From a virus (Duplodnaviria; Heunggongvirae; Uroviricota; Caudoviricetes): a DNA stretch of 33,676 nucleotides. The notes under the pieces are model-generated. The model saw nothing but the letters and a program-made list of their open reading frames with translations. It searched no databases and had not been told where the DNA came from. Shown piece after piece: positions 10,948 through 33,676 of the stretch. Made by a program: the position numbers and the translations under genes. Location: positions 1 to 33,676 of the IMG/VR virus record IMGVR_UViG_2690315994_000029. One strand, given 5' to 3'. How positions within the stretch are numbered: the first letter of the stretch is position 1; each line of letters begins with the position of its first letter.

Positions 10948-10949
10948 GA

Positions 10950-12747: not shown

Positions 12748-13110
12748 TTAGCAGTTCTCTTTGGTGGTGGTGTAGTGGTAGATGCTGAACTTCGGATTGA
12801 CTCAATGGACTGATCTTCACCCCACCCCAAAAGGAACTAAGCGCCCCATCGTCGGGGCGTTTCAACTTGCGTGACTTATCAGTTTGTCGCGGTGTTGTCC
12901 TCTACGCTTACCGTACGCATACGGACTCGGCGCTTACCTCGATCCCATCGGGTGCTATTTCGTTTTGCCAGGAGTACTGCGGCTTACCTGTCACGCGGTT
13001 CAGTTTGTTAAAGAGCCAGTATTAAAAAACGCATTAATTATGCGATATCGTATTTATATGCGTTATGGGATTTTGTGTCAATACGAAAATGAATTATTTT
13101 GCAAATAAGA

Positions 13111-13135
13111 AAACCGCCCTTGTGGAGAGCGGTTT
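13111..13135 (-). terminator. putative rho-independent terminator downstream of cI
   Basis: AAACCGC / GCGGTTT stem; on the minus strand followed by U-rich UCUUAUUUGC. Confidence 0.45.
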
Positions 13136-13165
13136 GATCAGAAGTAAGTTATCAGACTGTAAAGG

Positions 13166-13840: not shown

Positions 13841-13981
13841 TTGGATTCATCCATGTTGTATACAGGGACGGTGATTATGCGTTATCGGATATTTTAATCT
13901 AGGATGACATAGAATTGCTGTATTGCTGAGTAATCCGTTTTCGTATAAATTTGCGCTATAGACGAAAGTGGAGACTTAAAT
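13841..13981. promoter_or_regulatory. cI/cro divergent intergenic operator-promoter region
   Basis: 141 bp between divergent repressor genes; palindromic TGTATACA at 13856-13863; possible rightward promoter TTGCTG ... TATAAA about 13923-13950. Confidence 0.5.
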
Positions 13982-14182
13982 ATGTCCGGACTAACACCAC
14001 AAGAGATGGTCAAAAGCTTGATTGATTCAGGGTATACCCAAAACCAAATTGCCGAAATTGCAGGCGTGAAGCAGTCTTCTATTAGTCGGCTTCTTACCGG
14101 GGTTCATTCTGACCCTCGCTTTTCTACAGTACGTGCGATAGAAAAACTTTTTCAGGAAGTGACAGCTAGACAAAAGGTGTAA
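13982..14182 (+). CDS. cro: Cro-like HTH regulator
   Basis: 66 aa with XRE-type HTH (TQNQIAEIAGVKQSSISRL); first gene of rightward operon. Confidence 0.7.
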   Translation: MSGLTPQEMVKSLIDSGYTQNQIAEIAGVKQSSISRLLTGVHSDPRFSTVRAIEKLFQEVTARQKV

Positions 14183-14185
14183 CCC

Positions 14186-16372: not shown

Positions 16373-16530
16373 AAGAGAAGGTGGTTCCACCTTGCAGACC
16401 TTGTGGCAAGCGGGGCGGAACTACTGGAACCACTGGAACCGCCTTTCTACTAGAAACCCCATATATATATATAAGTCGATTGAGGGAAAGGTTAGGAAAA
16501 GGTGGTTCCAGGTGGGGGCAGGTGGTTCCA
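16342..16530. repeat. putative replication origin: GGAACC(A/G)C iterons flanking an alternating AT tract
   Basis: Direct copies at 16342, 16351, 16361, 16426, 16435; inverted GTGGTTCC at 16381, 16502, 16522; (AT)n tract at about 16460-16472. Confidence 0.6.
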
Positions 16531-16660
16531 CTCCGAATTAGCAACTTTTTGCATGTTGATACATGCAATATGCGGATCGGAACTGCGTTATCCACACCCA
16601 CGGATAAACAGACGTAGTTCTCAGAAAAATTTTTCGTAGCAAAACGTAGAGGTCAGAGCT

Positions 16661-17083
16661 ATGCGTAATATTCAACAGGTTTTAGAGCGCTGGGGTGGCT
16701 GGGCAGCGAGTGAAGGTGGTAGCGTCTACTTTCCTCCTGTTGCAGCCGGGTTTAAGAATCTGCTACCCGCGACGCAGTCTGGAAGGCTGAAATGCAGTGA
16801 CAATGACGGTCTTATCATCAACTCCGCTATGAGCTGCCTGAAGAAAAAAGATCCGTATCTGTGCACGCTCCTTGAGTGGCATTACGTCCAGGCCATGCCC
16901 GTGCGGGCGATGGGTGAGAAGCTCGGCGTATCTCACACCCACGTTCTGAAGAGGCTTCAGGCGGCAGAGGGATTTATTGACGGTTGCTTAGCCATGCTGG
17001 ATGTGGTGCTCGAAATGGATCAGTCGGTTCAGTCAAAGCCTCAGGCTATCAGGACTTTGCGTAGGAGCTGCTCGGCGGCATAA
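16661..17083 (+). CDS. putative late-gene antiterminator Q
   Basis: 140 aa; sits between replication genes and the terminator-flanked lysis cassette; N-terminal VLERWGGW and C-terminal HTH-like region shared with the second Q-like ORF at 22102. Confidence 0.55.
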   Translation: MRNIQQVLERWGGWAASEGGSVYFPPVAAGFKNLLPATQSGRLKCSDNDGLIINSAMSCLKKKDPYLCTLLEWHYVQAMPVRAMGEKLGVSHTHVLKRLQAAEGFIDGCLAMLDVVLEMDQSVQSKPQAIRTLRRSCSAA

Positions 17084-17114
17084 TATCCAGCAATCAATCA
17101 CGTAAGGGAACCAG

Positions 17115-17456
17115 ATGGCTCTGATCAGCGTTCGCAACAGATTTGAAAGCTTCATGGAACAGAGGTACCCAGACCTGTCGTTGCAGGTCAAAGGTAATAT
17201 TGGCGCATCAATGAAGGCTCAACTTGGCATCAGGATTGAACGAGAATTGTACAGTGAAGATGTTACTTACTGTGATTCAGCAGTTCAGTTGATGTGGACA
17301 CTCTTTCAGGCAGGTGTTCTGGCCGAACGAAGAGCTACCAGCGTTACGCTTCCTGCGCTGAAGGCAAAGCCGGATAGCTTCTACGATGCGGGTTATAACG
17401 AAGGTATTCAGGACTGTCGTAAACATCTGACGGCATCAGGCATCAAGGTAAGATAA
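17115..17456 (+). CDS. hypothetical protein
   Basis: 113-aa ORF with ATG 17115 directly after Q. Confidence 0.45.
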   Translation: MALISVRNRFESFMEQRYPDLSLQVKGNIGASMKAQLGIRIERELYSEDVTYCDSAVQLMWTLFQAGVLAERRATSVTLPALKAKPDSFYDAGYNEGIQDCRKHLTASGIKVR

Positions 17457-17901: not shown

Positions 17902-18243
17902 ATGAAAATGCACAATGCTCCTCATTCCTGGCCTGACTTACTGGAACTCTTACAAAGTTGGTGGCGTGGAGATACGCCGTTGGGCGCAGTGGTTATGTCA
18001 ATTGTTATGGCTGGCTTGCGCATTGCCTATTTTGGCGGTGGTGGCGGCTGGAAACGAAAAACGCTTGAGATTTTGCTCTGTGGTGCTCTGACGCTGACCT
18101 TTGCATCCGCTCTTGAGTATGTTGGATGGCCTAAATCGCTTTCTGTTGCCATTGGTGGTGGTGTTGGGCTGATCGGTGTGGATGCTATTCGTGGGGCTGC
18201 AATGCGAGTAATCGGTAACAAGTTTGGTGGCTCTAAGGAGTAA
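17902..18243 (+). CDS. holin
   Basis: Start MKM (dual-start-like) at 17902 with GGAGGTGGGAAG RBS; hydrophobic helices; directly upstream of endolysin; track start 17785 lies in the terminator hairpin. Confidence 0.65.
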   Translation: MKMHNAPHSWPDLLELLQSWWRGDTPLGAVVMSIVMAGLRIAYFGGGGGWKRKTLEILLCGALTLTFASALEYVGWPKSLSVAIGGGVGLIGVDAIRGAAMRVIGNKFGGSKE

Positions 18244-18246
18244 TTC

Positions 18247-18723
18247 ATGCAGACACTAAATTCCCAACGTAAAGCTTTCCTGGATATGGTGGCATGGTCA
18301 GAAGGAACGGATAACGGGCGACAACCGACACGTAATCACGGTTATGACGTTATCGTCGGAGGTGAGTTGTTCACTGATTACTCCGATCACCCTCGCAAAC
18401 TTGTCACGCTAAACCCGAAGCTTAAATCAACAGCCGCAGGACGGTATCAGCTTCTTTCACGCTGGTGGGATGCCTACTGTAAGCAGCTTGGCCTGAAAGA
18501 TTTTTCGCCAGAAAGTCAGGACGCTGTGGCGCTGCAGCAGATTAAAGAGCGTGGCGCTTTACCGATGATTGACCGTGGCGATATTCGTCAGGCAATCGAC
18601 TGTTGCAGCAATATCTGGGCGTCGTTACCTGGTGCAGGTTACGGTCAGTATGAACATAAAATCGGTGACCTGATTTCCAGGTTTAAAGATGCTGGTGGGG
18701 TGGTAAATGAAGCTGACTTATAA
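18247..18723 (+). CDS. R: endolysin, lambda R-like lytic transglycosylase
   Basis: 158 aa, near-identical over long stretches to lambda R as I recall it (NQRKAFLDM.AWSEGTDNGRQ.TRNHGYDVIVGGELFTDYSDHPRKLVTLNPKLKST). Confidence 0.9.
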   Translation: MQTLNSQRKAFLDMVAWSEGTDNGRQPTRNHGYDVIVGGELFTDYSDHPRKLVTLNPKLKSTAAGRYQLLSRWWDAYCKQLGLKDFSPESQDAVALQQIKERGALPMIDRGDIRQAIDCCSNIWASLPGAGYGQYEHKIGDLISRFKDAGGVVNEADL

Positions 18724-19231
18724 GATTGTCATCGCGGCATTTTTCTTCTCTGCCTTTGGGGCGCTCGTCTGGTCTGCAAACCATTACCACAGCAAGTATC
18801 AGGCAGAAAAGTTGCGGGCTGATAAAGCGGAAGGTGAAGCTGAATATCAAGGGAAAGTGATAGCTAATCAGGCATTAAACTTCAATCGTTTTAACCAGAT
18901 AGCAGAAAACGCAAGCCGATTAAATTCTCTGGTCGACATCGGTCACGAGAAGACAGTCATCAAATACCGTGAGGTTCTGCTCCGTGAAAAGAACTGTGAT
19001 TTCCCTGTTCCTGTTGATATTGCTGTCGGGTTGCTCAACTACGCGAACCGTTTACGCGCCAGCGCATTGCACGCCGATTCCGGGGACATTGACTCAGCCG
19101 GTGATCGTGCCACTACCACCAGAACGTTGACATATTGCCAGGCTGTTCTGTGGATTAACCCACTGTTGGCGGCCATCGAGAAGGCGAATAACCAGTTGGC
19201 TGGTGTCCGACAAATAGAACAGTCCCGGTAA
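18707..19231 (+). CDS. Rz: Rz-like i-spanin
   Basis: 174 aa; N-terminal TM helix then coiled-coil; overlaps the R stop; contains embedded Rz1 frame. Confidence 0.75.
   Translation: MKLTYKIVIAAFFFSAFGALVWSANHYHSKYQAEKLRADKAEGEAEYQGKVIANQALNFNRFNQIAENASRLNSLVDIGHEKTVIKYREVLLREKNCDFPVPVDIAVGLLNYANRLRASALHADSGDIDSAGDRATTTRTLTYCQAVLWINPLLAAIEKANNQLAGVRQIEQSR
18984..19130 (+). CDS. Rz1: Rz1-like o-spanin lipoprotein (embedded in Rz)
   Basis: Alternate-frame ORF with lipobox LSGC and Pro-rich tail (LFLLILLSGCSTTRTVYAPAHCTPIPGTLTQPVIVPLPPER); start codon uncertain (GTG 18984 assumed). Confidence 0.5.
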   Translation: MKRTVISLFLLILLSGCSTTRTVYAPAHCTPIPGTLTQPVIVPLPPER

Positions 19232-19292: not shown

Positions 19293-19865
19293 ATGACTAA
19301 GAAGCTGAAAGCAAAACACGAGGTGTTTTGTCGCGAGTTTCTTGTCGATCTGAATGCTACACAAGCAGCTATTCGCGCAGGCTACGTCTCCAGGCGAGCA
19401 CATGTTACGGGGGCTGAACTATACGGTAAACCTGAGATACGCGCCCGTATTAACGAGCTAAAGCAGGAGCGTATTGATCAACTGGGCATTGATGCGAATT
19501 ATGTGCTGATGCGACTGGTTGAGATCGACAGGCTCGATGTGGCTGACATCCTGGAGGACGATTTAAGTATTAAGCCTCTGTCTGCGTGGCCGGAATCGTG
19601 GCGTCGGTACCTGAGTGGATTTAACCTCGCTGAAATGTTTGAGGGGCGAGGAGATGACAGAGAAATGGTCGGGATCCTTAAAAAGATTAAGTGGCCTGAT
19701 AAGGTTAAAAACCTTGAGTTGCTTGGGCGTCATGTTTCTGTTCAGGCGTTTAAAGACAACGTCAAAAATGAAGTGACTGGCGCTGATGGAGGACCCGTCA
19801 GAACAGAAATTACCAACTTAACGCCGGAGCAGGCTGCAGAGGCGTATAGAAAAATGATGGGCTAA
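19293..19865 (+). CDS. terminase small subunit
   Basis: 190 aa; N-terminal [23 protein letters not shown] typical of small terminases; directly upstream of large terminase. Confidence 0.7.
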
Positions 19866-20544: not shown

Positions 20545-20545
20545 N

Positions 20546-21724
20546 TGACTCACAATGGGCGGCAATTTGTTCCATTGCCCCAAAGATTGGCTGTACGCCA
20601 GAGACTCTGCGTGTGTGGGTTCGTCAGCATGAGCGGGATACCGGGAGTGGTGATGGTGGATTCACCACCGCTGAACGTCAGCGTCTGAAAGAGCTGGAAC
20701 GTGAAAATCGTGAACTGCGCCGCAGTAACGATATCCTTCGCCAGGCTTCCGCTTATTTTGCGAAGGCGGAGTTCGACCGCCTCTGGAAAAAATAATGCCA
20801 CTGCTGGATAAGCTGCGTGAGCAGTACGGGGTCGGACCGGTATGCAGTGAACTGCATATTGCCCCGTCAACGTATTACCACTGTCAGCAACAGCGACATC
20901 ATCCTGATAAACGCAGTGCCCGTGCGCAGCGCGATGACTGGCTGAAGAGAGAGATACAGCGCGTATACGATGAAAATCATCAGGTGTACGGTGTGCGTAA
21001 AGTCTGGCGCCAGTTGTTACGCGAAGGTATCAGGGTGGCCAGATGTACAGTGGCGCGCCTCATGGCGGTTATGGGACTTGCCGGTGTTCTCCGGGGTAAA
21101 AAGGTCCGTACTACCGTCAGCCGGAAAGCCGTTTCCGCAGGCGACCGCGTAAACCGTCAGTTCGTGGCAGAACGTCCTGACCAGCTGTGGGTGGCTGATT
21201 TTACTTACGTCAGCACATGGCAGGGCTTCGTCTATGTGGCGTTCATCATTGATGTGTTTGCCGGATGCATCGTGGGGTGGCGAGTCTCATCGTCTATGGA
21301 AACGACATTCGTGCTGGATGCACTGGAGCAGGCGTTGTGGGCCCGTCGGCCGTCCGGCACAGTCCATCACAGTGATAAAGGTTCTCAGTATGTATCACTG
21401 GCCTATACGGAGCGACTAAAAGAAGCAAAACTGCTGGCATCAACAGGGAGTACAGGTGACTCGTATGACAACGCGATGGCGGAGAGCATCAATGGTCTTT
21501 ACAAAGCGGAGGTAATACACCGTAAGAGCTGGAAAAACCGTGCAGAAGTGGAACTGGCCACACTCACGTGGGTGGACTGGTATAACAATCGACGATTGCT
21601 GGGAAGGCTGGGTCATATCCCTCCGGCAGAAGCAGAAAAAGCTTATTATGCTTCCATCAGAAACGATGATCTGGCAGCCTGAGTTCACAGATAAAACACT
21701 CTCCAGGAAAACCGGGGCGGTTCA
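20546..21724 (+). mobile_element. IS3-family insertion sequence (IS629/IS1203-like by recollection), 5'-truncated at contig join
   Basis: Partial orfA (20547-20795), TAATG overlap into orfB, right terminal repeat ending CCGGGGCGGTTCA at 21724; left end and first ~28 codons of orfA missing. Confidence 0.75.
20795..21682 (+). CDS. IS3-family transposase OrfB (DDE integrase domain)
   Basis: 295 aa with DDE-type catalytic region (WVADFTYV ... HHSDKGSQY ... DNAMAES); normally made as an OrfAB frameshift fusion. Confidence 0.8.
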   Translation: MPLLDKLREQYGVGPVCSELHIAPSTYYHCQQQRHHPDKRSARAQRDDWLKREIQRVYDENHQVYGVRKVWRQLLREGIRVARCTVARLMAVMGLAGVLRGKKVRTTVSRKAVSAGDRVNRQFVAERPDQLWVADFTYVSTWQGFVYVAFIIDVFAGCIVGWRVSSSMETTFVLDALEQALWARRPSGTVHHSDKGSQYVSLAYTERLKEAKLLASTGSTGDSYDNAMAESINGLYKAEVIHRKSWKNRAEVELATLTWVDWYNNRRLLGRLGHIPPAEAEKAYYASIRNDDLAA

Positions 21725-21725
21725 G

Positions 21726-21815
21726 AATGTGCTGTGGAACTGGATCCTGTTCCGTAAATTTTCCTCTCCGGAGGAAGTCGAAAATGTGGCCGCGCAGTTA
21801 CTGGAGTTTGCGTAA
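21726..21815 (+). pseudogene. 3' remnant of a phage gene interrupted by the IS element
   Basis: In-frame tail ...NVLWNWILFRKFSSPEEVENVAAQLLEFA whose stop overlaps the next ATG (TAATG), as in a packed phage operon; 5' part is not in the window. Confidence 0.35.
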
Positions 21816-22105
21816 TGGTGGATTTACGTAAAGCGGCGCGGGGGCAGATGTGCACCGTCAGAATTCCTGGCTACTGCAATCACAATCCCGAAACTTCTGT
21901 GCTGGCGCATTACAGGCTGGCGGGGACGTGCGGAACAGCGACAAAACCACACGATATGCAGGCAGCGATTGCCTGTAGCTCATGCCACGATTTAATCGAC
22001 GGGCGGGTAAAAAACAGCGATTACACCAAAGAAGAATTACGCCTGATGCATGCAGAAGGTGTTTTTCGCACACAAGAAATCTGGAGAAAGGAAGGTTATT
22101 TATGA
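21815..22105 (+). CDS. YbcO-like (DUF1364) nin-region protein
   Basis: 96 aa; DLRKAARGQMCTVRIPGYCNHNPETSVLAHYRLAG ... IACSSCHDLID resembles E. coli DLP12 YbcO as I recall it. Confidence 0.65.
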   Translation: MVDLRKAARGQMCTVRIPGYCNHNPETSVLAHYRLAGTCGTATKPHDMQAAIACSSCHDLIDGRVKNSDYTKEELRLMHAEGVFRTQEIWRKEGYL

Positions 22106-22656
22106 TTTACCCAACAAATACAGGCAAAAGCGGGGAACACCTTCGTCTCTCCACGCTGGAAAGTGTCTGGATTCAGGGAAAACTGCGCATGTGGGGGCGC
22201 TGGTCGTATATTGGCGGCGGTAAGACGGGAAATATGTTCAACCAGTTGCTGACCTCTAAAAAGCTGACAAAAACGGCAATTAACGAGGCGCTCCGGAGGA
22301 TGAAAAAAGCAGGTCTGGACAAACCTGAACTTGAGGCTTTTTTGCGGGATATGATCAACGGCAAGCAAAAAAGCTGGCTGGTGCATTGTACTGATGCAGA
22401 GGCGTTATGCATTGATCGGGTGATTAGTGAAGTGCTGGCAGAACACCCAGGATTGATTTGTATCCTCCGGCAAAGATATGAAGGGCGGGGGATGAGTAAG
22501 CGCAAAATGGCTGAATTGCTAAATGATGCACACCCTGAGTGGTGTTTTCGGACGTGCTGCAGTCGGGTAGATGTATGGCTAAATCTTGCTGAATATATGC
22601 TCTATCTGCCGATGCGTGATGCATTCTCTTCCGGGTATTTAAAAACTGTCTGTTGA
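22102..22656 (+). CDS. putative Q-like late antiterminator (second, divergent allele)
   Basis: 184 aa from ATG 22102 (AAAGGAAGG RBS, ATGA overlap with previous gene); shares the W-G-x-W N-terminal motif and C-terminal HTH-like region with the 16661 Q-like protein; followed by a terminator. Confidence 0.5.
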   Translation: MIYPTNTGKSGEHLRLSTLESVWIQGKLRMWGRWSYIGGGKTGNMFNQLLTSKKLTKTAINEALRRMKKAGLDKPELEAFLRDMINGKQKSWLVHCTDAEALCIDRVISEVLAEHPGLICILRQRYEGRGMSKRKMAELLNDAHPEWCFRTCCSRVDVWLNLAEYMLYLPMRDAFSSGYLKTVC

Positions 22657-22744
22657 CTCAATCTGTTATCCGGGGCTATATTCCTCACGCGCCAGCAAAA
22701 TCTGGCGTCGGGATTAGGAACCCCGGATAGAGACCGCGACAGAC

Positions 22745-22766
22745 ACACGCCGCGAGCGTGTTTTTT
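22745..22766 (+). terminator. putative rho-independent terminator (tR'-like) after the Q-like gene
   Basis: ACACGC-cgcga-GCGTGT followed by TTTTTTATT; preceded by hairpin CGCCAG-caaaat-CTGGCG at 22690-22707. Confidence 0.55.
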
Positions 22767-22929
22767 ATTGTCGTATGCACGCGCACATCTGAATTATGGT
22801 GGGGCGTATGGGGGAGCTGAAAAGCTCGCCGGTTGGTTTCCCGGTAGTTCCTAACCCTGTACGTCTCACCACCCGATGATTAGGAACCTGACGGTGGTGA
22901 TGGTTTAGAAACCACCAGAGGGCGTCATT

Positions 22930-23511
22930 ATGACAACTCAAATTTCTGTTGAAACTCTCTCCCCGATCACCCATAACCAGATTCCTGTTATTACCACCGA
23001 ACTTTTGGCGCAGTTGTACGGTGCTGAAGTTAAGAACATTCAAAATAACTACGCCAGAAATGCTGAGCGCTTTATTGAAGGAAAGCATTTTTTCAAAGTG
23101 GCTGGCGATGCCCTGAAAAATTTGCGGGTAGCTTTAAACTACTCACAAAATTTGCAACCATCTTTAAGAGGGTTACAAATTTCCCCGAAAGCCCGCTCCC
23201 TCATCCTCTGGACAGAACGCGGAGCAGCCCGTCATGCCAAAATGCTCGAAACCGATCAGGCGTGGGATGTGTTCGAAAAGCTGGAAGACTGCTATTTCAG
23301 ACAAAAGGATCCGTCAGCGCCAGTTTCATGCCAGAAAAGTTACGACACGCGAGTTCTCTGTTATCAGCGAGGCGGTGTCACTGTTTCCACAATTCAGTTA
23401 CGGGATGATGATATTGTTATTTCCCTTGAGTCATGGCTGGAACTGGCGAGAGCCAATGGTTGGTTTGTTGTTCGCAGAGATAAACTGGTGGAAAGGTTGA
23501 TGCAGCTTTAA
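22930..23511 (+). CDS. ORF6N-domain protein (antirepressor-like DNA-binding cargo gene)
   Basis: 193 aa; N-terminal ITTELLAQLYGAEVKNIQNNYARNAERFIEGKHFFKV matches the ORF6N domain pattern as I know it; sits in the Q-to-holin slot. Confidence 0.65.
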   Translation: MTTQISVETLSPITHNQIPVITTELLAQLYGAEVKNIQNNYARNAERFIEGKHFFKVAGDALKNLRVALNYSQNLQPSLRGLQISPKARSLILWTERGAARHAKMLETDQAWDVFEKLEDCYFRQKDPSAPVSCQKSYDTRVLCYQRGGVTVSTIQLRDDDIVISLESWLELARANGWFVVRRDKLVERLMQL

Positions 23512-23606
23512 AAAAGTTCTTGCATTTTTGCACATAAACTGCTTCAATTCCGGTACGCTTCGCAAAGCTGTATCGCGAGGCGAATCAAGCGCATGAACTT
23601 TACCAG

Positions 23607-23635
23607 AACCCGCCATTGAGCGGGTTTTGTTGTTT
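23607..23635 (+). terminator. putative rho-independent terminator
   Basis: AACCCGC-cattga-GCGGGTT followed by TTGTTGTTTC. Confidence 0.5.
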
Positions 23636-23858
23636 CTGACGGATAGAAAAATGAAATAGCTAAATAAAAAGAATGCATTGGATGCCATATATTGGCAACG
23701 TGACGACAGCGTTAATCTGGTCGGGCTCCCATGGCGACGTAGTGAGGGAGAGGAAGCGTAAAGCATCACTGAGTTACGGTTGGCACCCGGTTTAACGCGT
23801 AAGTGGCCTGATAAAGAGATAGTGCGCCGCGGCACTCACAGCGGCAACGATTAACTGA

Positions 23859-23885
23859 CCTCGGCATTTGCCGAGGTTTTTTATT
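23859..23885 (+). terminator. putative rho-independent terminator
   Basis: CCTCGGC-attt-GCCGAGG followed by TTTTTTATTT. Confidence 0.6.
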
Positions 23886-24006
23886 TAAGGCCGCAGACAG
23901 GCCCATTTAGTGCAACGCCTTTCCCCGTTTCCGCTCCTGGAATATTCGGGGATTTTTTATTCCCTCAATTTGCACCCGCGATATGTGCGAGGTGAGAGAT
24001 GATGAA

Positions 24007-24342
24007 ATGCCTCATAACCCAAATACCTGGCCGGACTGGCTGGAGTTGTTTCAGAGCTGGTGGCGTGGAGACACACCGCTGGGTGCAGTGATTATGTCGA
24101 TCGTTATGGCTGGTTTGCGCATCGCCTATTTTGGCGGTGGTGGGGGCTGGAAACGAAAAACGCTTGAGATTTTGCTCTGTGGTGCCCTGACGCTGACCTT
24201 TGCATCCGCGCTTGAGTATGTCGGATGGCCTAAATCACTTTCTGTTGCCATTGGTGGTGGGGTGGGGCTGATTGGTGTTGATGCTATTCGTGGTGCGGCA
24301 ATGAGGGTCATCGGTAACAAGTTCGGTGCCCATAAGGAGTAA
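24007..24342 (+). CDS. holin (second copy, divergent N-terminus)
   Basis: Identical to the 17902 holin from WWRGDTPLGAV onward except for the last residues; different N-terminus; start ATG 24007. Confidence 0.65.
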   Translation: MPHNPNTWPDWLELFQSWWRGDTPLGAVIMSIVMAGLRIAYFGGGGGWKRKTLEILLCGALTLTFASALEYVGWPKSLSVAIGGGVGLIGVDAIRGAAMRVIGNKFGAHKE

Positions 24343-24345
24343 TTA

Positions 24346-24822
24346 ATGCAGACACTTAATTCCCAGCGTAAAGCTTTCCTTGATATGGTGGCATGGTCAG
24401 AAGGAACGGATAACGGGCGACAACCGACACGTAACCACGGTTATGATGTTATTGTTGGTGGCGAACTGTTCACTGATTACTCCGATCACCCTCGCAAACT
24501 TGTCACACTAAATCCGACACTCAAATCAACAGCCGCCGGACGTTACCAGCTTCTTTCACGCTGGTGGGATGCCTACCGCAAGCAACTTGGTCTGAAAGAT
24601 TTTTCTCCAGAAAGCCAGGATGCTGTAGCGCTGCAGCAGATTAAAGAGCGTGGCGCTTTACCGATGATTGACCGCGGCGATATTCGTCAGGCAATCGACC
24701 GGTGCAGCAATATCTGGGCGTCGTTACCTGGTGCAGGTTACGGTCAGTATGAACATAGAATCGGTGACCTGATTTCCCGATTTAAAGAAGCTGGTGGGGT
24801 GGTAAATGAAGCTGAGATATAA
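24346..24822 (+). CDS. R: endolysin, lambda R-like lytic transglycosylase (second copy)
   Basis: 158 aa, about 95 percent identical to the 18247 copy by eye. Confidence 0.9.
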   Translation: MQTLNSQRKAFLDMVAWSEGTDNGRQPTRNHGYDVIVGGELFTDYSDHPRKLVTLNPTLKSTAAGRYQLLSRWWDAYRKQLGLKDFSPESQDAVALQQIKERGALPMIDRGDIRQAIDRCSNIWASLPGAGYGQYEHRIGDLISRFKEAGGVVNEAEI

Positions 24823-25198
24823 GCTGGTTATTGTTGCCTTCTTTGTTACCGTCATCGGTTCTTTTATCTGGTCTGCCGGGCATTACTACAGCAAATATCA
24901 ACACGAAAAGGAGCGTGCTGATGAGGCTGTACGAAATGCTGAATCTGCAACAGCCATTACCAGTAACGTCCTGCAATCACTGCAAATCATCAATACAGTT
25001 ATAGAGGCTAACCAGCATGCAAAACAGCAGATCGCACTGGAGTCACAGAGAACCCAGGAAGATATCAAAGTGGCTGTTGCGGATGATGATTGTGCTGTTC
25101 GTATCGTTCCTTCTGGCGCAGTTAAGCGGTTGCACGAATACGCGAACGGTATACGTGTCGGTGCCGGTCGTTCCGTTACCAGCCAGTCTGACGGATGA
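24806..25198 (+). CDS. Rz: Rz-like i-spanin (second, divergent copy)
   Basis: 130 aa; N-terminal TM helix plus coiled coil; overlaps the R stop. Confidence 0.7.
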   Translation: MKLRYKLVIVAFFVTVIGSFIWSAGHYYSKYQHEKERADEAVRNAESATAITSNVLQSLQIINTVIEANQHAKQQIALESQRTQEDIKVAVADDDCAVRIVPSGAVKRLHEYANGIRVGAGRSVTSQSDG

Positions 25199-25361
25199 AA
25201 CACCCCAGCCAGATTTACCCGACCCGTTTACGTGGGGAGCCAGCATTAACCTGAATGTTGCGTTGTTGTCAGCGTTAGCACAGTGCAACAGGGATAAGGC
25301 TGATATCAGGACTTTTGAGAAAAATAGGGCAGCACAAACTAATGGCACGATTAAACGTTGA
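25083..25361 (+). CDS. Rz1: Rz1-like o-spanin lipoprotein (overlapped, extends past Rz)
   Basis: Alternate frame; lipobox LAQLSGC and Pro-rich PVVPLPASLTDETPQPDLPDP; start taken at MMIVLF (25083). Confidence 0.5.
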   Translation: MMIVLFVSFLLAQLSGCTNTRTVYVSVPVVPLPASLTDETPQPDLPDPFTWGASINLNVALLSALAQCNRDKADIRTFEKNRAAQTNGTIKR

Positions 25362-25527
25362 AGTTATCCCACCAGACAGCGAAACGATGAACGGGATTTT
25401 TGCAGAGATTGAACGTAAATATGCGCATCAGCCGATGACGCCAAAAGTTATCGATGAAATGCAACGCGAAGCGGCGCGCCTTGTACGGCGAGCGACAAAC
25501 ACGAAGGTTACGTTCGTTCGGGACTGA
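25342..25527 (+). CDS. small hypothetical protein
   Basis: 61-aa ORF from ATG 25342 in the extra segment that prophage B has between Rz and the conserved hairpin; weak RBS. Confidence 0.3.
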   Translation: MARLNVEVIPPDSETMNGIFAEIERKYAHQPMTPKVIDEMQREAARLVRRATNTKVTFVRD

Positions 25528-25664
25528 CATTACAGAAGCTCCTTTGATAAGGAGCTTCGATAATGTCACTAAGAGGAAAAATTCATGGCAAAACCGGACT
25601 GGGAGGCCATCGAATCGGTGCCCCGGGCCAGATTGCTCTCTCCGTTAAATCAGAACTCAAAATC

Positions 25665-26120
25665 CTATCCGTGGAAAATATTTGCATCCAAATCATCTAT
25701 GAGATTAGACCTAACTGATTCATAATTTTTCCCATATGCGGCCCCTTTACCTGAATGGGTTACATGCCCAATAGGACCGTACAGAAGTATAGAGATTGTG
25801 AATGATATTTCATCAGAAATGCCGCCTATCTTTTGAAACCAAAGTTCCGGGTTACGATTCCGGTCGGTTACAACGTCAAATACAAGCGCGATAAGATCTG
25901 GGAGATAGTACATGTTAAATCCGCCTTTTGGGGTCAACTCGAGATTCAACAGGGCTTTGATGGAGGGATAATTGCTTACATCATCCTGAATGCCATTCTT
26001 AAGAGTTGTAAACACAAAGTTCAGCATTTCAGCAACTTTATCTTTGTTTGGTTCTACTCCATTTCTGAAGGACCGCTCTCCAGATTCATATTTTTCAACA
26101 CAAAAATCTAATAAATTCAT
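25665..26120 (-). CDS. hypothetical soluble protein, low-GC moron between lysis and terminase genes
   Basis: About 151 aa (ATG 26120 with GGGGA RBS; track start 26126); opposite strand to the late operon; GC visibly lower than flanks; no motif recognised. Confidence 0.6.
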   Translation of the reverse strand: MNLLDFCVEKYESGERSFRNGVEPNKDKVAEMLNFVFTTLKNGIQDDVSNYPSIKALLNLELTPKGGFNMYYLPDLIALVFDVVTDRNRNPELWFQKIGGISDEISFTISILLYGPIGHVTHSGKGAAYGKNYESVRSNLIDDLDANIFHG

Positions 26121-26142
26121 TATCATTCCCCGAGGTAACTAA

Positions 26143-26694
26143 ATGGCGCTCACCGACAAACAAGAGATGTTCTGTCGCGAGTACCTCATCGATTTAAACG
26201 CCACGCAAGCGGCTATTCGGGCGGGGTACAGCGCTAAGACAGCTAACCGTACCGCATCCGAAAACCTGTCAAAACCTGACATCAAGTTAAGAATCGCCGA
26301 ACTGAAAGCGCAACGCAATGATCTTGTTGGTATTAATGCAGAATATGTACTTAATCGCCTTATTGAAATCGACCAGATGGATGTGCTTGACATTCTCCTG
26401 CAAAACGGTGAGCTAAAACCCATTAAAGACTGGCCTAAGGTATGGCGCACAACGCTATCAGGAATGGATGTCGTGGAGATGGTATCCGCAGATAGCGCCG
26501 CACTTCTGAAGAAAATCAAATGGCCTGATAAGGTTAAAAACCTTGAGTTGCTTGGGCGCCATGTTTCTGTTCAGGCGTTTAAAGACAACGTCAAAAATGA
26601 AGTGACTGGTGCTGACGGAGGACCAGTCAGAACAGAAATTACCAACTTAACGCCGGAGCAGGCTGCAGAAGCGTATAAAAAAATGATGGGCTAA
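26143..26694 (+). CDS. terminase small subunit (second allele, mosaic)
   Basis: 183 aa; N-terminal two thirds diverged from the 19293 copy, C-terminal ~60 aa near-identical. Confidence 0.7.
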
Positions 26695-26696
26695 GT

Positions 26697-27562
26697 ATGC
26701 CGTTACCATTTCACTTCGATTTTAAACATCCTGATTACCAGATGGTTTTTGAATGGCGGATGGAACGCTTACAGCGCATTCGCCAGAACCCTGAAATATT
26801 GCCTGCACTAAAACAGTTTTACCGAACCAATCCGGCTCAGTTCATCATCGACTGGGGCATGACAACGGACCCGCGTAATATTGATTATGGCCTGCCGGTG
26901 ACCATTCCGTTTTTACTCTTCCCTAAGCAGGAGGAGTGGATCCACTGGATTATGGAACGCTGGAGCAATCGGGAGAATGGTATTACCGAAAAATCCCGTG
27001 AAATGGGGCTCAGTTGGACCGCGATCGGACTGGCCTGCTCGCTTTGTCTCTTCAACAAAGAAATGGTTATCGGTTTCGGCTCCCGTAAAGAGGAATACGT
27101 CGACAGCACTGGTGACCCGAAAGCATTGTTCTGGAAGGCACGCAAGTTCGTGGAAACGCTACCTGTAGAGTTTCGCGGTTCGTGGAGTGAGAAGAAGCAC
27201 GCGCCATATATGCGTGTTGAGTTTCCTGAAACTGGTGCCGTTATCAAAGGCGAGGCTGGCGATAATATTGGTCGTGGTGACCGTACCACGCTTTATCTGG
27301 TTGATGAGGCTGCATTCCTTCAGCGTCCTCTGCTGATTGATGCGGCGTTGTCACAAACGACGCGTTGCCGTATTGACCTGAGTTCAGTTAACGGCATGGC
27401 GAACCCGTTCGCTCAGAAGCGTCATGGCGGGAAGATACCGGTATTCACATTCCACTGGCGGGATGATCCTCGCAAGGATGAAGAGTGGTATCGCAGGGAA
27501 TGCGAGAAAATCGATAATCCGGTGGTGGTGGCACAGGAACTAGATCTGAACTACAGCGCATC
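26697..27562 (+). CDS. terminase large subunit, 3'-truncated at contig join
   Basis: Same N-terminal sequence as 19868 with a few substitutions; cut by 'n' at 27563. Confidence 0.7.
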
Positions 27563-27563
27563 N

Positions 27564-29018
27564 CTAATAAATTCATTATCATTCCCCGAGGTAACTAAAT
27601 GGCGCTCACCGACAAACAAGAGATGTTCTGTCGCGAGTACCTCATCGATTTAAACGCCACGCAAGCGGCTATTCGGGCGGGGTACAGCGCTAAGACAGCT
27701 AACCGTACCGCATCCGAAAACCTGTCAAAACCTGACATCAAGTTAAGAATCGCCGAACTGAAAGCGCAACGCAATGATCTTGTTGGTATTAATGCAGAAT
27801 ATGTACTTAATCGCCTTATTGAAATCGACCAGATGGATGTGCTTGACATTCTCCTGCAAAACGGTGAGCTAAAACCCATTAAAGACTGGCCTAAGGTATG
27901 GCGCACAACGCTATCAGGAATGGATGTCGTGGAGATGGTATCCGCAGATAGCGCCGCACTTCTGAAGAAAATCAAATGGCCTGATAAGGTTAAAAACCTT
28001 GAGTTGCTTGGGCGCCATGTTTCTGTTCAGGCGTTTAAAGACAACGTCAAAAATGAAGTGACTGGTGCTGACGGAGGACCAGTCAGAACAGAAATTACCA
28101 ACTTAACGCCGGAGCAGGCTGCAGAAGCGTATAAAAAAATGATGGGCTAAGTATGCCGTTACCATTTCACTTCGATTTTAAACATCCTGATTACCAGATG
28201 GTTTTTGAATGGCGGATGGAACGCTTACAGCGCATTCGCCAGAACCCTGAAATATTGCCTGCACTAAAACAGTTTTACCGAACCAATCCGGCTCAGTTCA
28301 TCATCGACTGGGGCATGACAACGGACCCGCGTAATATTGATTATGGCCTGCCGGTGACCATTCCGTTTTTACTCTTCCCTAAGCAGGAGGAGTGGATCCA
28401 CTGGATTATGGAACGCTGGAGCAATCGGGAGAATGGTATTACCGAAAAATCCCGTGAAATGGGGCTCAGTTGGACCGCGATCGGACTGGCCTGCTCGCTT
28501 TGTCTCTTCAACAAAGAAATGGTTATCGGTTTCGGCTCCCGTAAAGAGGAATACGTCGACAGCACCGGTGACCCGAAAGCATTGTTCTGGAAGGCGCGCA
28601 AGTTCGTGGAAACACTACCTGTAGAGTTTCGCGGTTCGTGGAGCGAGAAGAAGCACGCGCCATATATGCGTGTTGAGTTTCCTGAAACTGGTGCCGTTAT
28701 CAAAGGCGAGGCTGGCGATAATATTGGTCGTGGTGACCGTACCACGCTTTATCTGGTTGATGAGGCTGCATTCCTTCAGCGTCCTCTGCTGATTGATGCG
28801 GCGTTGTCACAAACGACGCGTTGCCGTATCGACCTGAGTTCAGTTAACGGCATGGCTAACCCGTTCGCTCAGAAGCGTCATGGCGGGAAGATACCGGTAT
28901 TCACATTCCACTGGCGGGATGATCCTCGCAAGGATGAAGAGTGGTATCGCAGGGAATGCGAGAAAATCGATAATCCGGTGGTGGTGGCACAGGAACTTGA
29001 TCTGAACTACAGCGCATC
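27564..29018. repeat. redundant copy of 26108-27562 (overlapping contig joined by 'n')
   Basis: Sequence after 'n' 27563 restarts at CTAATAAATTCATTATCATTCC and repeats the small and large terminase 5' parts. Confidence 0.85.
27599..28150 (+). CDS. terminase small subunit (redundant copy)
   Basis: Identical protein to 26143-26694. Confidence 0.7.
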
Positions 29019-29237
29019 AGCGGAAGGCGTTCTGATTCCATCCGAATGGGTACAGGCTGCCGTTGATGCGCATATCAAACTGGGTATCCAGCCAACAGGC
29101 AAACGACTTGGCGCGATGGATGTCGCCGACGAAGGCAGGGACAAAAATGCCTTTTCCACCCGTCATGGCTTCCTCCTGGAAAATGTGCGGGAATGGTCCG
29201 GTGTGGGCAGCGACATTTATCAGTCCGTCGAGAAGGT
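28153..29237 (+). CDS. terminase large subunit, partial (to 'n' at 29238)
   Basis: 361 codons through Walker motifs and into the nuclease-like domain ([16 protein letters not shown]); the 738-aa track ORF is an artefact fusion across the 'n'. Confidence 0.7.
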
Positions 29238-29238
29238 N

Positions 29239-29830
29239 GAGAAGAAGCACGCGCCATATATGCGTGTTGAGTTTCCTGAAACTGGTGCCGTTATCAAAGG
29301 CGAGGCTGGCGATAATATTGGTCGTGGTGACCGTACCACGCTTTATCTGGTTGATGAGGCTGCATTCCTTCAGCGTCCTCTGCTGATTGATGCGGCGTTG
29401 TCACAAACGACGCGTTGCCGTATTGACCTGAGTTCAGTTAACGGCATGGCGAACCCGTTCGCTCAGAAGCGTCATGGCGGGAAGATACCGGTATTCACAT
29501 TCCACTGGCGGGATGATCCTCGCAAGGATGAAGAGTGGTATCGCAGGGAATGCGAGAAAATCGATAATCCGGTGGTGGTGGCACAGGAACTTGATCTGAA
29601 CTACAGCGCATCAGCGGAAGGCGTTCTGATTCCATCCGAATGGGTACAGGCTGCCGTTGATGCGCATATCAAACTGGGTATCCAGCCAACAGGCAAACGA
29701 CTTGGCGCGATGGATGTCGCCGACGAGGGCAGGGACAAAAATGCCTTTTCCACCCGTCATGGCTTCCTCCTGGAGAATGTGCGGGAATGGTCCGGTGTGG
29801 GCAGCGACATTTATCAGTCCGTCGAGAAGG
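29239..29830. repeat. redundant copy of about 28646-29237
   Basis: Sequence after 'n' 29238 restarts inside the large terminase at GAGAAGAAGCACGCGCC. Confidence 0.8.
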
Positions 29831-30369
29831 TCTTCGGCTTTTGCGAACAGGACGATCTTGAAGAGTTTCGCTTTGACGAGGACGGGCTGGGCGCTGGCGT
29901 TCGCGGCGATGCGCGCGCTATCAACGAACTGCGTAACGTTGCGCGCCGACCGTCAATACTCGCCACACCGTTTCGAGGTAGTGGCGCGGTATTTGATCCG
30001 GATGATGAAGCTGTTCGCGGGGACAACGGGCAAGCCGCACGTCTGAACAAGGACTTCTTCGCTAACGCCAAAGCCCAGAGCTGGTGGCGGTTACGTAAAC
30101 TTTTTCAGAATACCTGGCGCGCCGTGGTTGAAGGTATGGCTTACAACCCGGACGAAATCATCTCAATCAGCAGTAGCATGGCACTCAAAGATAAACTCAT
30201 CATCGAGCTTTCGCAGCCGACCTATTCCATTAATGGTGTGGGAAAAATCGTTATTGATAAACAGCCTGATGGAACCCGATCGCCAAACCTTGCCGACTCG
30301 GTGATGATCAACTATGCCCCAATGAATTCAGCCCTGAACATCTGGGAGCTGCTAGGGAGACAGGCCTGA
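29239..30369 (+). CDS. terminase large subunit, 3' fragment
   Basis: In-frame continuation ending ...[10 protein letters not shown]; stop TGA 30367-30369 overlaps the next ATG. Confidence 0.65.
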
Positions 30370-30420
30370 TGGCACGAAACAAACAAGCCCTGCGGCGAAC
30401 TGCGCAGGCNNNNNNNNNNN

Positions 30421-31395
30421 CAGTTAACGGCATGGCGAACCCGTTCGCTCAGAAGCGTCATGGCGGGAAGATACCGGTATTCACATTCCACTGGCGGGAT
30501 GATCCTCGCAAGGATGAAGAGTGGTATCGCAGGGAATGCGAGAAAATCGATAATCCGGTGGTGGTGGCACAGGAACTAGATCTGAACTACAGCGCATCAG
30601 CGGAAGGCGTCCTGATTCCATCCGAATGGGTACAGGCTGCCGTTGATGCGCATATCAAACTGGGTATCCAGCCAACAGGCAAACGACTTGGCGCGATGGA
30701 TGTCGCCGACGAAGGCAGGGACAAAAATGCCTTTTCCACCCGTCATGGCTTCCTCCTGGAAAATGTGCGGGAATGGTCCGGTGTGGGCAGCGACATTTAT
30801 CAGTCCGTCGAGAAGGTTTTCGGCTTTTGCGAACAGGACAACCTCGAAGAGTTTCGCTTTGACGAGGACGGGCTGGGCGCTGGCGTTCGCGGCGATGCAC
30901 GCGCTATCAACGAACTGCGTAACGCTGCGCGTCGACCGTCAATACTTGCCACACCGTTTCGAGGTAGTGGCGCGGTATTTGATCCGGATGATGAAGCTGT
31001 TCGCGGGGACAACGGGCAAGCAGCACGTCTGAACAAGGACTTCTTCGCTAACGCCAAAGCCCAGAGCTGGTGGCGGTTACGTAAACTTTTTCAGAATACC
31101 TGGCGCGCCGTGGTTGAAGGTATGGCTTACAACCCGGACGAAATCATCTCAATCAGCAGTAGCATGGCACTCAAAGATAAACTCATCATCGAGCTTTCGC
31201 AGCCGACCTATTCCATTAATGGTGTGGGAAAAATCGTTATTGATAAACAGCCTGATGGAACCCGATCGCCAAACCTTGCCGACTCGGTGATGATCAACTA
31301 TGCCCCAATGAATTCAGCCCTGAACATCTGGGAGCTGCTAGGGAGACAGGCCTGATGGCACGAAACAAACAAGCCCTGCGGCGAACTGCGCAGGC
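30421..31395. repeat. redundant copy of about 29435-30409 (variant allele)
   Basis: After n-run 30410-30420 the sequence restarts at CAGTTAACGGCATGGCG; differs at a few positions (e.g. EQDNLEEF vs [14 protein letters not shown] vs RNVARR). Confidence 0.8.
30423..31355 (+). CDS. terminase large subunit, 3' fragment (variant allele)
   Basis: Frame from VNGMANPF to GRQA stop. Confidence 0.6.
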
Positions 31396-31888
31396 TACAG
31401 CTGATGGTTATGAGAATTTTATTGCCCGCGTAGGGATGCAGACACCTAACCAGCACTCAGCATCCACCTACCGGGCTAATTTCACCAGTCGTAACCGCAT
31501 GCTGGTGGAATGGTCCTATCGTTCATCCTGGATCATCGGCGAAGCAGTCGATGCTATCCCGGATGATATGACCCGCAAAGGCATTCGCATCACTTCGGAA
31601 ATTGATGCAAAAGATCGTGGCATTCTCGAATCACAACTGGATGAGTTGCAAATCTGGGATGCGCTGAATGACGTGCTGAAATGGTCGCGCCTCTACGGCG
31701 GCGCGGTGGGTTTCATCATGATTGAGGGGCAGGCACCAATGACCCCGCTGCGACCCGAAACCATCGGTAAGGGCAAGTTTAAGGGGATTCTCCCGCTCGA
31801 CCGCTGGATGATCGACCCGGTACTGACCCGCCGCATTAAAGATATGGGGCCGGACCTGGGTAAACCTGAGTTTTACGATGTGGTGACC
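31355..31888 (+). CDS. putative portal protein, 5' fragment
   Basis: ATG 31355 overlaps terminase stop (ATGA-type); 178 codons then n-run; portal assignment by position only. Confidence 0.5.
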
Positions 31889-31899
31889 NNNNNNNNNNN

Positions 31900-33367
31900 C
31901 AGTTAACGGCATGGCGAACCCGTTCGCTCAGAAGCGTCATGGCGGGAAGATACCGGTATTCACATTCCACTGGCGGGATGATCCTCGCAAGGATGAAGAG
32001 TGGTATCGCAGGGAATGCGAGAAAATCGATAATCCGGTGGTGGTGGCACAGGAACTAGATCTGAACTACAGCGCATCAGCGGAAGGCGTCCTGATTCCAT
32101 CCGAATGGGTACAGGCTGCCGTTGATGCGCATATCAAACTGGGTATCCAGCCAACAGGCAAACGACTTGGCGCGATGGATGTCGCCGACGAGGGCAGGGA
32201 CAAAAATGCCTTTTCCACCCGTCATGGCTTCCTCCTGGAGAATGTGCGGGAATGGTCCGGTGTGGGCAGCGACATTTATCAGTCCGTCGAGAAGGTCTTC
32301 GGCTTTTGCGAACAGGACGATCTTGAAGAGTTTCGCTTTGACGAGGACGGGCTGGGCGCTGGCGTTCGCGGCGATGCGCGCGCTATCAACGAACTGCGTA
32401 ACGTTGCGCGCCGACCGTCAATACTCGCCACACCGTTTCGAGGTAGTGGCGCGGTATTTGATCCGGATGATGAAGCTGTTCGCGGGGACAACGGGCAAGC
32501 CGCACGTCTGAACAAGGACTTCTTCGCTAACGCCAAAGCCCAGAGCTGGTGGCGGTTACGTAAACTTTTTCAGAATACCTGGCGCGCCGTGGTTGAAGGT
32601 ATGGCTTACAACCCGGACGAAATCATCTCAATCAGCAGTAGCATGGCACTCAAAGATAAACTCATCATCGAGCTTTCGCAGCCGACCTATTCCATTAATG
32701 GTGTGGGAAAAATCGTTATTGATAAACAGCCTGATGGAACCCGATCGCCAAACCTTGCCGACTCGGTGATGATCAACTATGCCCCAATGAATTCAGCCCT
32801 GAACATCTGGGAGCTGCTAGGGAGACAGGCCTGATGGCACGAAACAAACAAGCCCTGCGGCGAACTGCGCAGGCTACAGCTGATGGTTATGAGAATTTTA
32901 TTGCCCGCGTAGGGATGCAGACACCTAACCAGCACTCAGCATCCACCTACCGGGCTAATTTCACCAGTCGTAACCGCATGCTGGTGGAATGGTCCTATCG
33001 TTCATCCTGGATCATCGGCGAAGCAGTCGATGCTATCCCGGATGATATGACCCGCAAAGGCATTCGCATCACTTCGGAAATTGATGCAAAAGATCGTGGC
33101 ATTCTCGAATCACAACTGGATGAGTTGCAAATCTGGGATGCGCTGAATGACGTGCTGAAATGGTCGCGCCTCTACGGCGGCGCGGTGGGTTTCATCATGA
33201 TTGAGGGGCAGGCACCAATGACCCCGCTGCGACCCGAAACCATCGGTAAGGGCAAGTTTAAGGGGATTCTCCCGCTCGACCGCTGGATGATCGACCCGGT
33301 ACTGACCCGCCGCATTAAAGATATGGGGCCGGACCTGGGTAAACCTGAGTTTTACGATGTGGTGACC
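31900..33367. repeat. redundant copy of 30421-31888
   Basis: After n-run 31889-31899 the sequence restarts at the same CAGTTAACGGCATGGCG breakpoint. Confidence 0.8.
31902..32834 (+). CDS. terminase large subunit, 3' fragment (redundant)
   Basis: Identical protein to the 29239-30369 fragment over the shared part. Confidence 0.6.
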
Positions 33368-33676
33368 ACAGCAACGGGAATTCCTGCCTGGCGCATTCAT
33401 CACAGTCGCCTGATTCGCTTTGATGGCGTCACGCTGCCATTTCAGCAGAAGATGACCGAGAACGAATGGGGAATGTCGGTTGTAGAGCGTATCTGGGATC
33501 GTCTTACCGCGTTCGACAGCGCTACTGTCGGCGCGGCGCAGCTGGTCTACAAAGCGCATTTGCGTACCTACAGCGTGGAGAAACTACGCGAGCTTATCGC
33601 ACTTGGTGGTCCTGCGTATGAAGCGTTGCTGAAGAATATTGACCTGATTCGACAGTTCCAGAGCAATGAAGGCATG
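32834..33676 (+). CDS. putative portal protein, 5' part (runs off window end)
   Basis: ATG 32834; open frame to the last base; by position immediately after the large terminase. Confidence 0.5.
   Translation, partial: MARNKQALRRTAQATADGYENFIARVGMQTPNQHSASTYRANFTSRNRMLVEWSYRSSWIIGEAVDAIPDDMTRKGIRITSEIDAKDRGILESQLDELQIWDALNDVLKWSRLYGGAVGFIMIEGQAPMTPLRPETIGKGKFKGILPLDRWMIDPVLTRRIKDMGPDLGKPEFYDVVTTATGIPAWRIHHSRLIRFDGVTLPFQQKMTENEWGMSVVERIWDRLTAFDSATVGAAQLVYKAHLRTYSVEKLRELIALGGPAYEALLKNIDLIRQFQSNEGM

Follow-up and report, generated by a model that had tools for sequence, protein, structure and literature searches.

Repeated terminase and portal gene fragments at the end of an Escherichia coli draft scaffold: very probably unmerged assembly pieces of near-identical prophages

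Results

The window, i.e., the whole 33,676-nucleotide stretch of DNA analyzed here, corresponds to positions 26044 to 59719 of the 59,721-base draft scaffold CYBJ01000030.1 (GCA_001284825.1) from an E. coli strain close to the O103:H2/O45:H2 strains. The scaffold stops 2 bases past the window, so the pile-up of repeats described below lies at the scaffold end. According to a letter count over the whole window, it contains 25 Ns, all of them at five joins and none elsewhere. These joins separate six pieces, referred to below as A to F, all on the plus strand. No papers on GCA_001284825 or CYBJ01 were found in the searchable literature, and the assembly pipeline is undocumented there.

Piece A (positions 1 to 20544) consists of the yfhL flank and prophage 1, with genes running from the integrase (470 to 1873) through terS (19293 to 19865) to codons 1 to 225 of terL. 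It breaks off in mid-terL at position m 6828 of the merged coordinates (m), immediately before the variable site m 6829. The single N at 20545 then leads from mid-terL into the interior of an IS3-family element, and the matches to terL and to the insertion sequence (IS) each end at this N. Piece B (20546 to 27562), a fragment of prophage 2, starts inside orfA of that element (20546 to ∼21724), which lacks its first ∼130 nt; the HTH_Tnp_1 match begins at profile position 26. It continues with the YbcO/DUF1364, DUF1133, and ORF6N genes, a lysis cassette, a 153-aa minus-strand open reading frame (ORF), terS (26143 to 26694), and terL codons 1 to 288. Pfam matches in this piece are HTH_Tnp_1, rve, YbcO, ORF6N, and Terminase_2. 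Insertion of the IS element into terL was considered as the cause of the first join and rejected, as the join enters the IS interior and no terminal inverted repeat is found there abutting terL.

The remaining pieces cover the same packaging genes again. Past the single N at 27563, the sequence jumps back by 1,455 bases to the counterpart of position 26108, 35 nt upstream of terS. Piece C (27564 to 29237) thus carries a second terS copy and terL codons 1 to 361, and only its last 219 bases are new; it is 99.5% identical to 26108 to 27562 and ends just before the variable site m 7237. By chance, the reading frame runs on through the single N at 29238, yielding a 738-aa pseudo-TerL. Piece D (29239 to 30409; terL codons 165 to 540 and portal codons 1 to 13) begins just after the variable site m 6643 and shares 99.3% identity with the last part of C and 99.8% with the first part of F. 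Beyond the 11 Ns at 30410 to 30420, piece E (30421 to 31888) begins 975 bases back and covers terL codons ∼230 to 540 and portal codons 1 to 178. Piece F (31900 to 33676), which follows the 11 Ns at 31889 to 31899, begins at the same base as E, covers terL codons ∼230 to 540 and portal codons 1 to 281, and stops 2 bases short of the scaffold end. It is 99.25% identical to E and contains the portal protein matches phrog_146 (PHROGs) and Phage_portal_3 (Pfam). A packaging (pac or cos) end was also considered for the shared start of E and F. Such sites are expected in or upstream of terS, and this explanation was rejected because E and F start at terL codon ∼230. All the N positions listed in the first-pass annotation proved exact, and the sequence does restart at each of them, but not always inside a terminase gene, as had been stated: at 20545 it enters the IS3-family transposase gene, and at 27563 it returns to the 35-nt point upstream of terS.

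Self-BLAST and ungapped comparison revealed that each piece after 27563 begins inside its predecessor and extends further. Positions 26108 to 27562 correspond to 27564 to 29018 with 7 mismatches in 1,455 bases, 28645 to 29237 to 29239 to 29831 with 4 in 593, and 30421 to 31888 to 31900 to 33367 with 11 in 1,468; the segment from 29435 to 30409 matches both 30421 to 31395 (13 mismatches in 975) and 31900 to 32874 (2 in 975). The near-exact repeats reported earlier at 27564 to 29018, 29239 to 29830, 30421 to 31395, and 31900 to 33367 are therefore present, with a single end corrected to 29831. Identities in the overlaps range from 98.7 to 99.8%, and the shifts between copies are irregular (1456, 594, 986, and 1479 bases). 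The 7,569 bases from 26108 to 33676 fold onto a single 3,054-base path, on which terS (183 aa) and terL (540 aa) are both intact, matching six complete genomes, and are followed by the first part of the portal gene. The order terS-terL-portal agrees with the domain assignments (Terminase_2 and Phage_portal_3 in Pfam; phrog_51 for terS, phrog_2 for terL, and phrog_146 for the portal protein in PHROGs).

Complete genomes contain this module in ordinary form. Each of the best 40 complete E. coli genomes spans all 7,569 bases with only 3,020 to 3,054 bases of its own DNA. Among 381 carrier genomes, none has more than two copies of the terL/portal stretch, and the close relatives 12009, SJ7, FWSEC0003, 2000-3039, 99E2750, and UTAK-4 each have one, so that the arrangement seen in the window is missing from completed genomes of this lineage. 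Approximately 9% of the module-carrying genomes have two or three copies of the module (438 genomes, 478 places). The 500-base span across the join between A and B was covered to at least 80% in none of 5,426 complete genomes, and a search for this join among IMG/VR viral contigs gave no match.

Piece A is colinear with the yfhL prophage of E. coli O103:H2 strain 12009 (NC_013353.1, from about 3,186,200 downwards), with 99.76% identity and no gaps over 20.5 kb (positions 19001 to 39544 of locus L001). The two share the integrase, the replication module, Q, the lysis cassette, and terS. In contrast to the window, where prophage 1 is broken at terL codon 226 by the scaffold join, strain 12009 has single copies of terS, terL (1,623 bp, 540 aa), and the portal gene, followed by uninterrupted head and tail genes. 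Piece B is colinear with lambdoid prophages of OkiPb01676 (98.5% identity over 3,843 bases) and CFS3292, and the collapsed 3,054-base path is 98.7 to 99.1% identical to A41 and CFS3292. The lambdoid prophages of all three strains carry the same terS (Terminase_2)-terL-portal (DUF1073) module but lack the IS3-family insertion that precedes the YbcO-like gene in the window copy.

A total of 41 sites vary among the window copies, all of them biallelic. Three of the seven piece ends directly adjoin a variable site (binomial P = 3.5e-5), and a fourth, the end of D at m 7814, adjoins a site at which six natural haplotypes disagree with the window. The codon differences in a 14-residue protein segment, noticed earlier, are real; the first form is found in D and F and the second in E. 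The earlier estimate of at least two alleles holds as a lower bound but falls short as a count: the patterns at m 5963 to 6643 and m 6997 to 7180 cannot be explained by only two haplotypes without chimeric pieces, so at least three to four copies of the module would be needed, or else some pieces represent a chimeric consensus.

Phasing of pieces C to F was compared with the haplotypes of 12009, UTAK-6, CFS3292, A41, 14EC029, and OkiPb01676. By similarity, E resembles a continuation of A: it is nearer than D or F to the haplotype of the yfhL prophage of 12009 (6 mismatches in 1,468 bases against L001 39556 to 41023), and it is 99.6 to 99.7% identical to many complete genomes, while the best complete-genome match of F is 99.2%. 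By allele phase, G6856 is common to B, D, E, F, and OkiPb01676, and the T6829/G6856 alleles of OkiPb01676 both occur in the window. Piece C combines 12009-like alleles with a B-type terS. Similarity and allele phase thus contradict each other, and a confident assignment of C, D, E, or F to prophage 1 or prophage 2 was rejected.

Discussion

Taken with the genome comparison, the structure of the region leaves little doubt that positions 27564 to 33676 are unmerged, overlapping contig pieces from near-identical prophages that were strung together with Ns. The first-pass annotation had already proposed an assembly artefact rather than a tandem array, and this is borne out by the draft nature of the source scaffold, the collapse to single-copy DNA, the absence of the A/B join elsewhere, and the piece ends at variant sites. 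Its wider statements need narrowing. The description as redundant terminase/portal fragments fits C to F; it does not fit 20546 to 27562, where a real, internally colinear part of another lambdoid prophage is found. Likewise, gene order and copy number to the right of 20545 are untrustworthy at the joins and over ∼4.5 kb, to which the spurious part is limited; for piece B, only its placement after A is unsupported.

The likely course of events can be outlined as follows. The source genome would carry the module in at least two near-identical prophages, prophage 1 beside yfhL (piece A) and prophage 2 with the IS3-family insertion (piece B), and a short-read assembler would have been unable to phase the copies. 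Each piece may then have been extended up to a base at which the copies disagree, or to a mosaic boundary, and a scaffolder may have chained the pieces with placeholder Ns, leaving the overlaps unmerged. C, D, E, and F would be four extra, mutually overlapping pieces of one 3-kb terS/terL/portal module, and some of the pieces are probably chimeric consensuses of different copies. The A/B join, from mid-terL to the IS interior, would be a repeat-induced false link.

Variant sites are where an assembler halts in an unresolved repeat. GapFiller grows edges one base at a time, halts at ambiguous "allelic" bases in repeats, and leaves a gap open when its size does not fit the estimated one (PMC3446322); both SSPACE and GapFiller work greedily and are able to produce false joins (PMC5320598). 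The window resembles SSPACE-, GapFiller-, or IMAGE-type artefacts in having an N at every join and flanks duplicated across an unclosed gap, as well as halts at copy-ambiguous positions and false joins of repeat-ended contigs (PMC3446322, PMC5320598), which points to greedy edge extension of this kind as the probable software behavior. A single gap-filling step at default limits would be expected to leave fewer than the five unresolved joins seen here in succession, with overlaps of 0.6 to 1.5 kb. Two observations count against an artefact. No complete genome has a 100% match to any piece, E and F included, and for E and F this is unfavorable. The 11-N runs, whose length equals the true distance of 11 nt from the end of A to the start of E and F, come after D and E rather than after A, a placement for which no simple scaffolder model stated accounts.

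A variant of the same idea is reference-guided ordering of separately assembled overlapping contigs with N spacers, in place of paired-read scaffolding and gap filling. The overlaps of about 600 to 1,500 bases far exceed typical k-mer overlaps, and the 11-N runs reproduce an exact reference distance, both of which would suit such ordering. It is nevertheless unlikely, since the order A, B, C, and so on matches no complete genome, piece B, which belongs to another prophage, sits in mid-terL, and variant-adjoining ends are better explained by greedy extension; it would likewise be an artefact. Another possibility is that the pieces were misassembled but their alleles came from a mixed or contaminated culture of two strains with related prophages. 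The biallelic state of all the variable sites and the single module copies of close complete relatives agree with this. Against it, A and B have different unique flanks, as is usual when one genome contains two prophages, ∼9% of carrier genomes have two or three module copies, and the allele patterns exceed two haplotypes if no piece is chimeric, all of which makes a mixed culture very improbable. Nor is any mixture evident in the chromosomal part of piece A, although a consensus sequence cannot reveal one.

Genuine, irregular tandem amplification of terL/portal in a prophage, with the Ns as ambiguous base calls at junctions, is the least probable alternative and can be practically discounted. 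The frame-preserving join at 29238 with its continuous ORF and the slight divergence of the copies, as in diverged duplicates, are what it would predict. However, a tandem duplication has a constant unit and reproducible head-to-tail junctions, whereas every junction here is different and marked by Ns, twice by 11 of them; the copies are cut at different points with irregular shifts, and the other joins give nonsense fusions. The ends adjoin variant sites, the repeats lie at the terminus of a draft scaffold, the best 40 complete genomes stack all the pieces on ∼3 kb, and no genome exceeds two terL/portal copies. There is also a slim chance, somewhat better than that of a mixed culture, that the four allele combinations of C, D, E, and F are all real, which would imply at least four prophages with the module and gene conversion at the ∼100-bp scale; the scaffold would then preserve, in scrambled form, an exceptionally large set of prophages that recombine with one another.

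Under the favored explanation of unmerged assembly pieces, the region holds no new biology. It is an ordinary artefact whose significance lies in data hygiene, and the real sequence in it comes from two related E. coli prophages with a near-identical packaging module, a situation common in such strains. As the first reading had supposed, ORFs that span the joins are artefactual: the 738-aa ORF at 28153 to 30369 can be decoded as two overlapping TerL parts, residues 1 to 361 and, after an X, residues 165 to 540, with residues 165 to 361 duplicated internally. The public gene calls of the source record include this 738-aa "TerL," a fusion of portal residues 1 to 13 with TerL residues 231 to 540, and cut-off fragments of 318, 183, and 307 aa. 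Entries of this kind can give rise to spurious "long terminase" or "fusion" families and falsely raise prophage gene counts, and scans for tandem arrays or new domain fusions should mask sequence near N joins.

Fragmentation of the terminase-portal region

The 25 Ns in the window, three single ones at positions 20545, 27563, and 29238 and two 11-N runs at 30410-30420 and 31889-31899, split it into six pieces, designated A to F from left to right (A, 1-20544; B, 20546-27562; C, 27564-29237; D, 29239-30409; E, 30421-31888; F, 31900-33676). According to self-BLAST and ungapped comparison, the pieces after B start within the preceding piece and extend beyond it. The end of B (26108-27562) recurs as the start of C (27564-29018) with 7 mismatches in 1,455 positions, and the end of C (28645-29237) as the start of D (29239-29831) with 4 mismatches in 593. 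The remainder of D (29435-30409) is repeated at the start of both E (30421-31395; 13 mismatches in 975 positions) and F (31900-32874; 2 in 975); E and F share their first base and differ at 11 of 1,468 positions (30421-31888 versus 31900-33367). The N positions and overlaps listed in the first-pass annotation are thus accurate almost to the base, and the amino acid differences that it quoted between the copies were found as well.

The repeated genes, recognized with Pfam and PHROGs, come in the order terS, terL, and portal and encode the small terminase subunit (Terminase_2, phrog_51), the large terminase subunit (phrog_2; 540 aa after collapsing the pieces), and the portal protein (Phage_portal_3/DUF1073, phrog_146). 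Open reading frames that span the joins are artefacts, as had been suggested earlier. The 738-aa ORF at 28153-30369 decodes as TerL residues 1 to 361, an X, and TerL residues 165 to 540, its frame being preserved only because two bases and one N make up a codon. The 318-aa ORF consists of TerL residues 1 to 288 followed by read-through into noncoding sequence, the 328-aa ORF of portal residues 1 to 13, XXXXX, and TerL residues 231 to 540, the 183-aa ORF of portal residues 1 to 178 with a short junk tail, and the 307-aa ORF of TerL residues 234 to 540. All five are among the gene calls of the public record.

Comparison with complete genomes

The truncated 307-aa ORF, which follows the last N run, was found on exactly one public contig, the Escherichia coli draft scaffold CYBJ01000030.1 (GCA_001284825.1; 59,721 bases). 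The window represents its positions 26044-59719 (identical over the 11,766 bases compared), so the pile-up of pieces stops 2 bases short of the scaffold end. Over its left 12 kb, the window matches E. coli O103:H2 12009, O45:H2 FWSEC0003, UTAK-6, and their relatives, all with complete genomes, at 99.7 to 99.8% identity. Strain 12009 is colinear with all 20,544 bases of piece A (99.76% identity, gap-free), including yfhL, integrase, the replication module, Q, the lysis genes, and terS, with an identical layout of 470-17456 in prophage 1, the piece A prophage adjoining yfhL. After terS, the 12009 prophage has one 1,623-bp terL and one portal gene, followed by the head and tail genes.

Collapsing the pieces into a single path (B and the tails of C, D, and F) yields, from the start of C, 3,054 bases with intact terS and intact 540-aa terL. 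In a search of 5,426 complete E. coli genomes with the 7,569 bases at 26108-33676, the 40 best matches each account for 99 to 100% of the query with only 3,020 to 3,054 bases of their own DNA, in five stacked alignments. This stacking upholds the earlier view of an assembly artefact as opposed to a tandem array. The stretch comprising the 3′ end of terL and the 5′ end of portal is present in 381 genomes, in a median of one and a maximum of two places per genome, and in one place only in the close relatives 12009, SJ7, FWSEC0003, 2000-3039, 99E2750, and UTAK-4. The repetition of terminase and portal genes does not reflect the real genome; it is a commonplace scaffolding artefact of a publicly deposited draft assembly. 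Redundant sequence makes up ∼4.5 kb of 27564-33676.

The warning that gene order and copy number to the right of 20545 cannot be trusted holds overall but not for the interior of 20546-27562. Piece B is a real, internally trustworthy fragment of a second prophage (prophage 2), misplaced only in following A. With a 500-base query spanning the first join (20545), coverage of 80% or more was not reached in any of the complete E. coli genomes searched, and matches to terL and to the insertion sequence (IS) both end at the N. Besides order and copy number, the allele phase inside single pieces may be unreliable, too.

Piece ends and variable sites

When all pieces are placed on a single coordinate, m, the variable sites 6643, 6829, and 7237 lie directly before the start of D (m 6644), directly after the end of A (m 6828), and directly after the end of C (m 7236), respectively. 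Thus, three of the seven piece ends abut a variable site (binomial P = 3.5e-5, given that 19 of 1,888 positions are variable). The end of D (m 7814) directly precedes a site with T in E and F versus C in six natural haplotypes, and C starts at m 5563, no more than 35 bases from the onset of homology to other prophages in most complete genomes. GapFiller extends sequence one base per step under a majority-ratio rule, halts in repeats at bases that are ambiguous (“allelic”), and leaves a gap unclosed when its size departs from the estimate (PMC3446322); the Sanger assembly-improvement paper describes SSPACE and GapFiller as greedy, with false joins possible (PMC5320598). Halting exactly where repeat copies differ is the behavior of greedy edge extension, from which we infer that such extension was part of the pipeline behind GCA_001284825.1.

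An 11-N run comes immediately before each of E and F, whose common first base is m 6840. The real spacing between this base and the end of A is exactly 11 nt, the length of both runs, yet they sit after D and E, not after A. In E. coli OkiPb01676, which carries a similar lambdoid prophage, additional differences at m 6832 and 6835, within these 11 nt, hint at a small variant cluster beyond the assembler's power to resolve.

Number of module copies

Pieces A and B carry different unique flanks; therefore, at least two prophages have the terS-terL-portal module. Within m 5963-6643, three patterns are seen: that of A, that of B (B-type, then A-like), and that of C (B-type, then different). Farther on, two biallelic blocks, m 6997/7030 and m 7132/7180, occur in all four combinations (TT and AA in C, TT and GG in D, AC and AA in E, AC and GG in F). 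Judging from these alleles, either the strain holds three to four or more copies of the module or some pieces are chimeric consensus sequences. Chimeric consensus is the likelier of the two, because complete genomes hold at most two copies of the terL-portal stretch. Part of the unusual alleles are genuine: T6829 and G6856 are also found in the OkiPb01676 prophage, which is 98.5% identical to B. Evidence for assigning C to F to given prophages was contradictory, and no assignment was made.

The holin/endolysin regions of prophages 1 and 2 (17924-18845 and 24023-24944, respectively) are 87% identical, versus about 97% for their terL genes, which are identical from m 6420 on. This contrast is modular mosaicism; the assembler confused the two prophages because of the shared identical terL stretch.

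Gene content of the prophages

Sequence restarts had been placed inside the terminase genes at every N, which is not the case for B. This piece opens inside orfA of an IS3-family element (20546 to ∼21724; HTH_Tnp_1 in orfA, then rve in orfB), so that the element is missing its first ∼130 nt. In RefSeq, its relatives carry the annotation “IS3 family transposase” and “AL1L pseudoknot”, and we presume it to be IS629-like. Across E. coli genomes, copies of the element number in the thousands (24,196 places in the first-join search). Its right end abuts a 3′ remnant of a DUF1367-family gene, so that prophage 2 carries it as a true insertion. The element is followed by YbcO/DUF1364, DUF1133, ORF6N, the lysis cassette, a 153-aa minus-strand ORF (25665-26126), and terS. 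The 153-aa ORF has a GC content of ∼0.40 to 0.43, versus ∼0.50 nearby, and had no match in Pfam or PADLOC. Its product is the hypothetical protein WP_159375970.1 of E. coli strains CFS3292 and A41, and it is missing from the otherwise similar OkiPb01676 prophage. The ORF resembles a moron-type cargo gene.

Prophage 1 (470-17456), located next to yfhL, pairs its lambdoid late region (Q, lysis, and packaging) with a non-lambda replication module that encodes a DEAD-box helicase, a cytosine methyltransferase, VRR-NUC, a 687-aa DNA polymerase, DUF2815, DUF2800, and a 728-aa VapE-domain protein.
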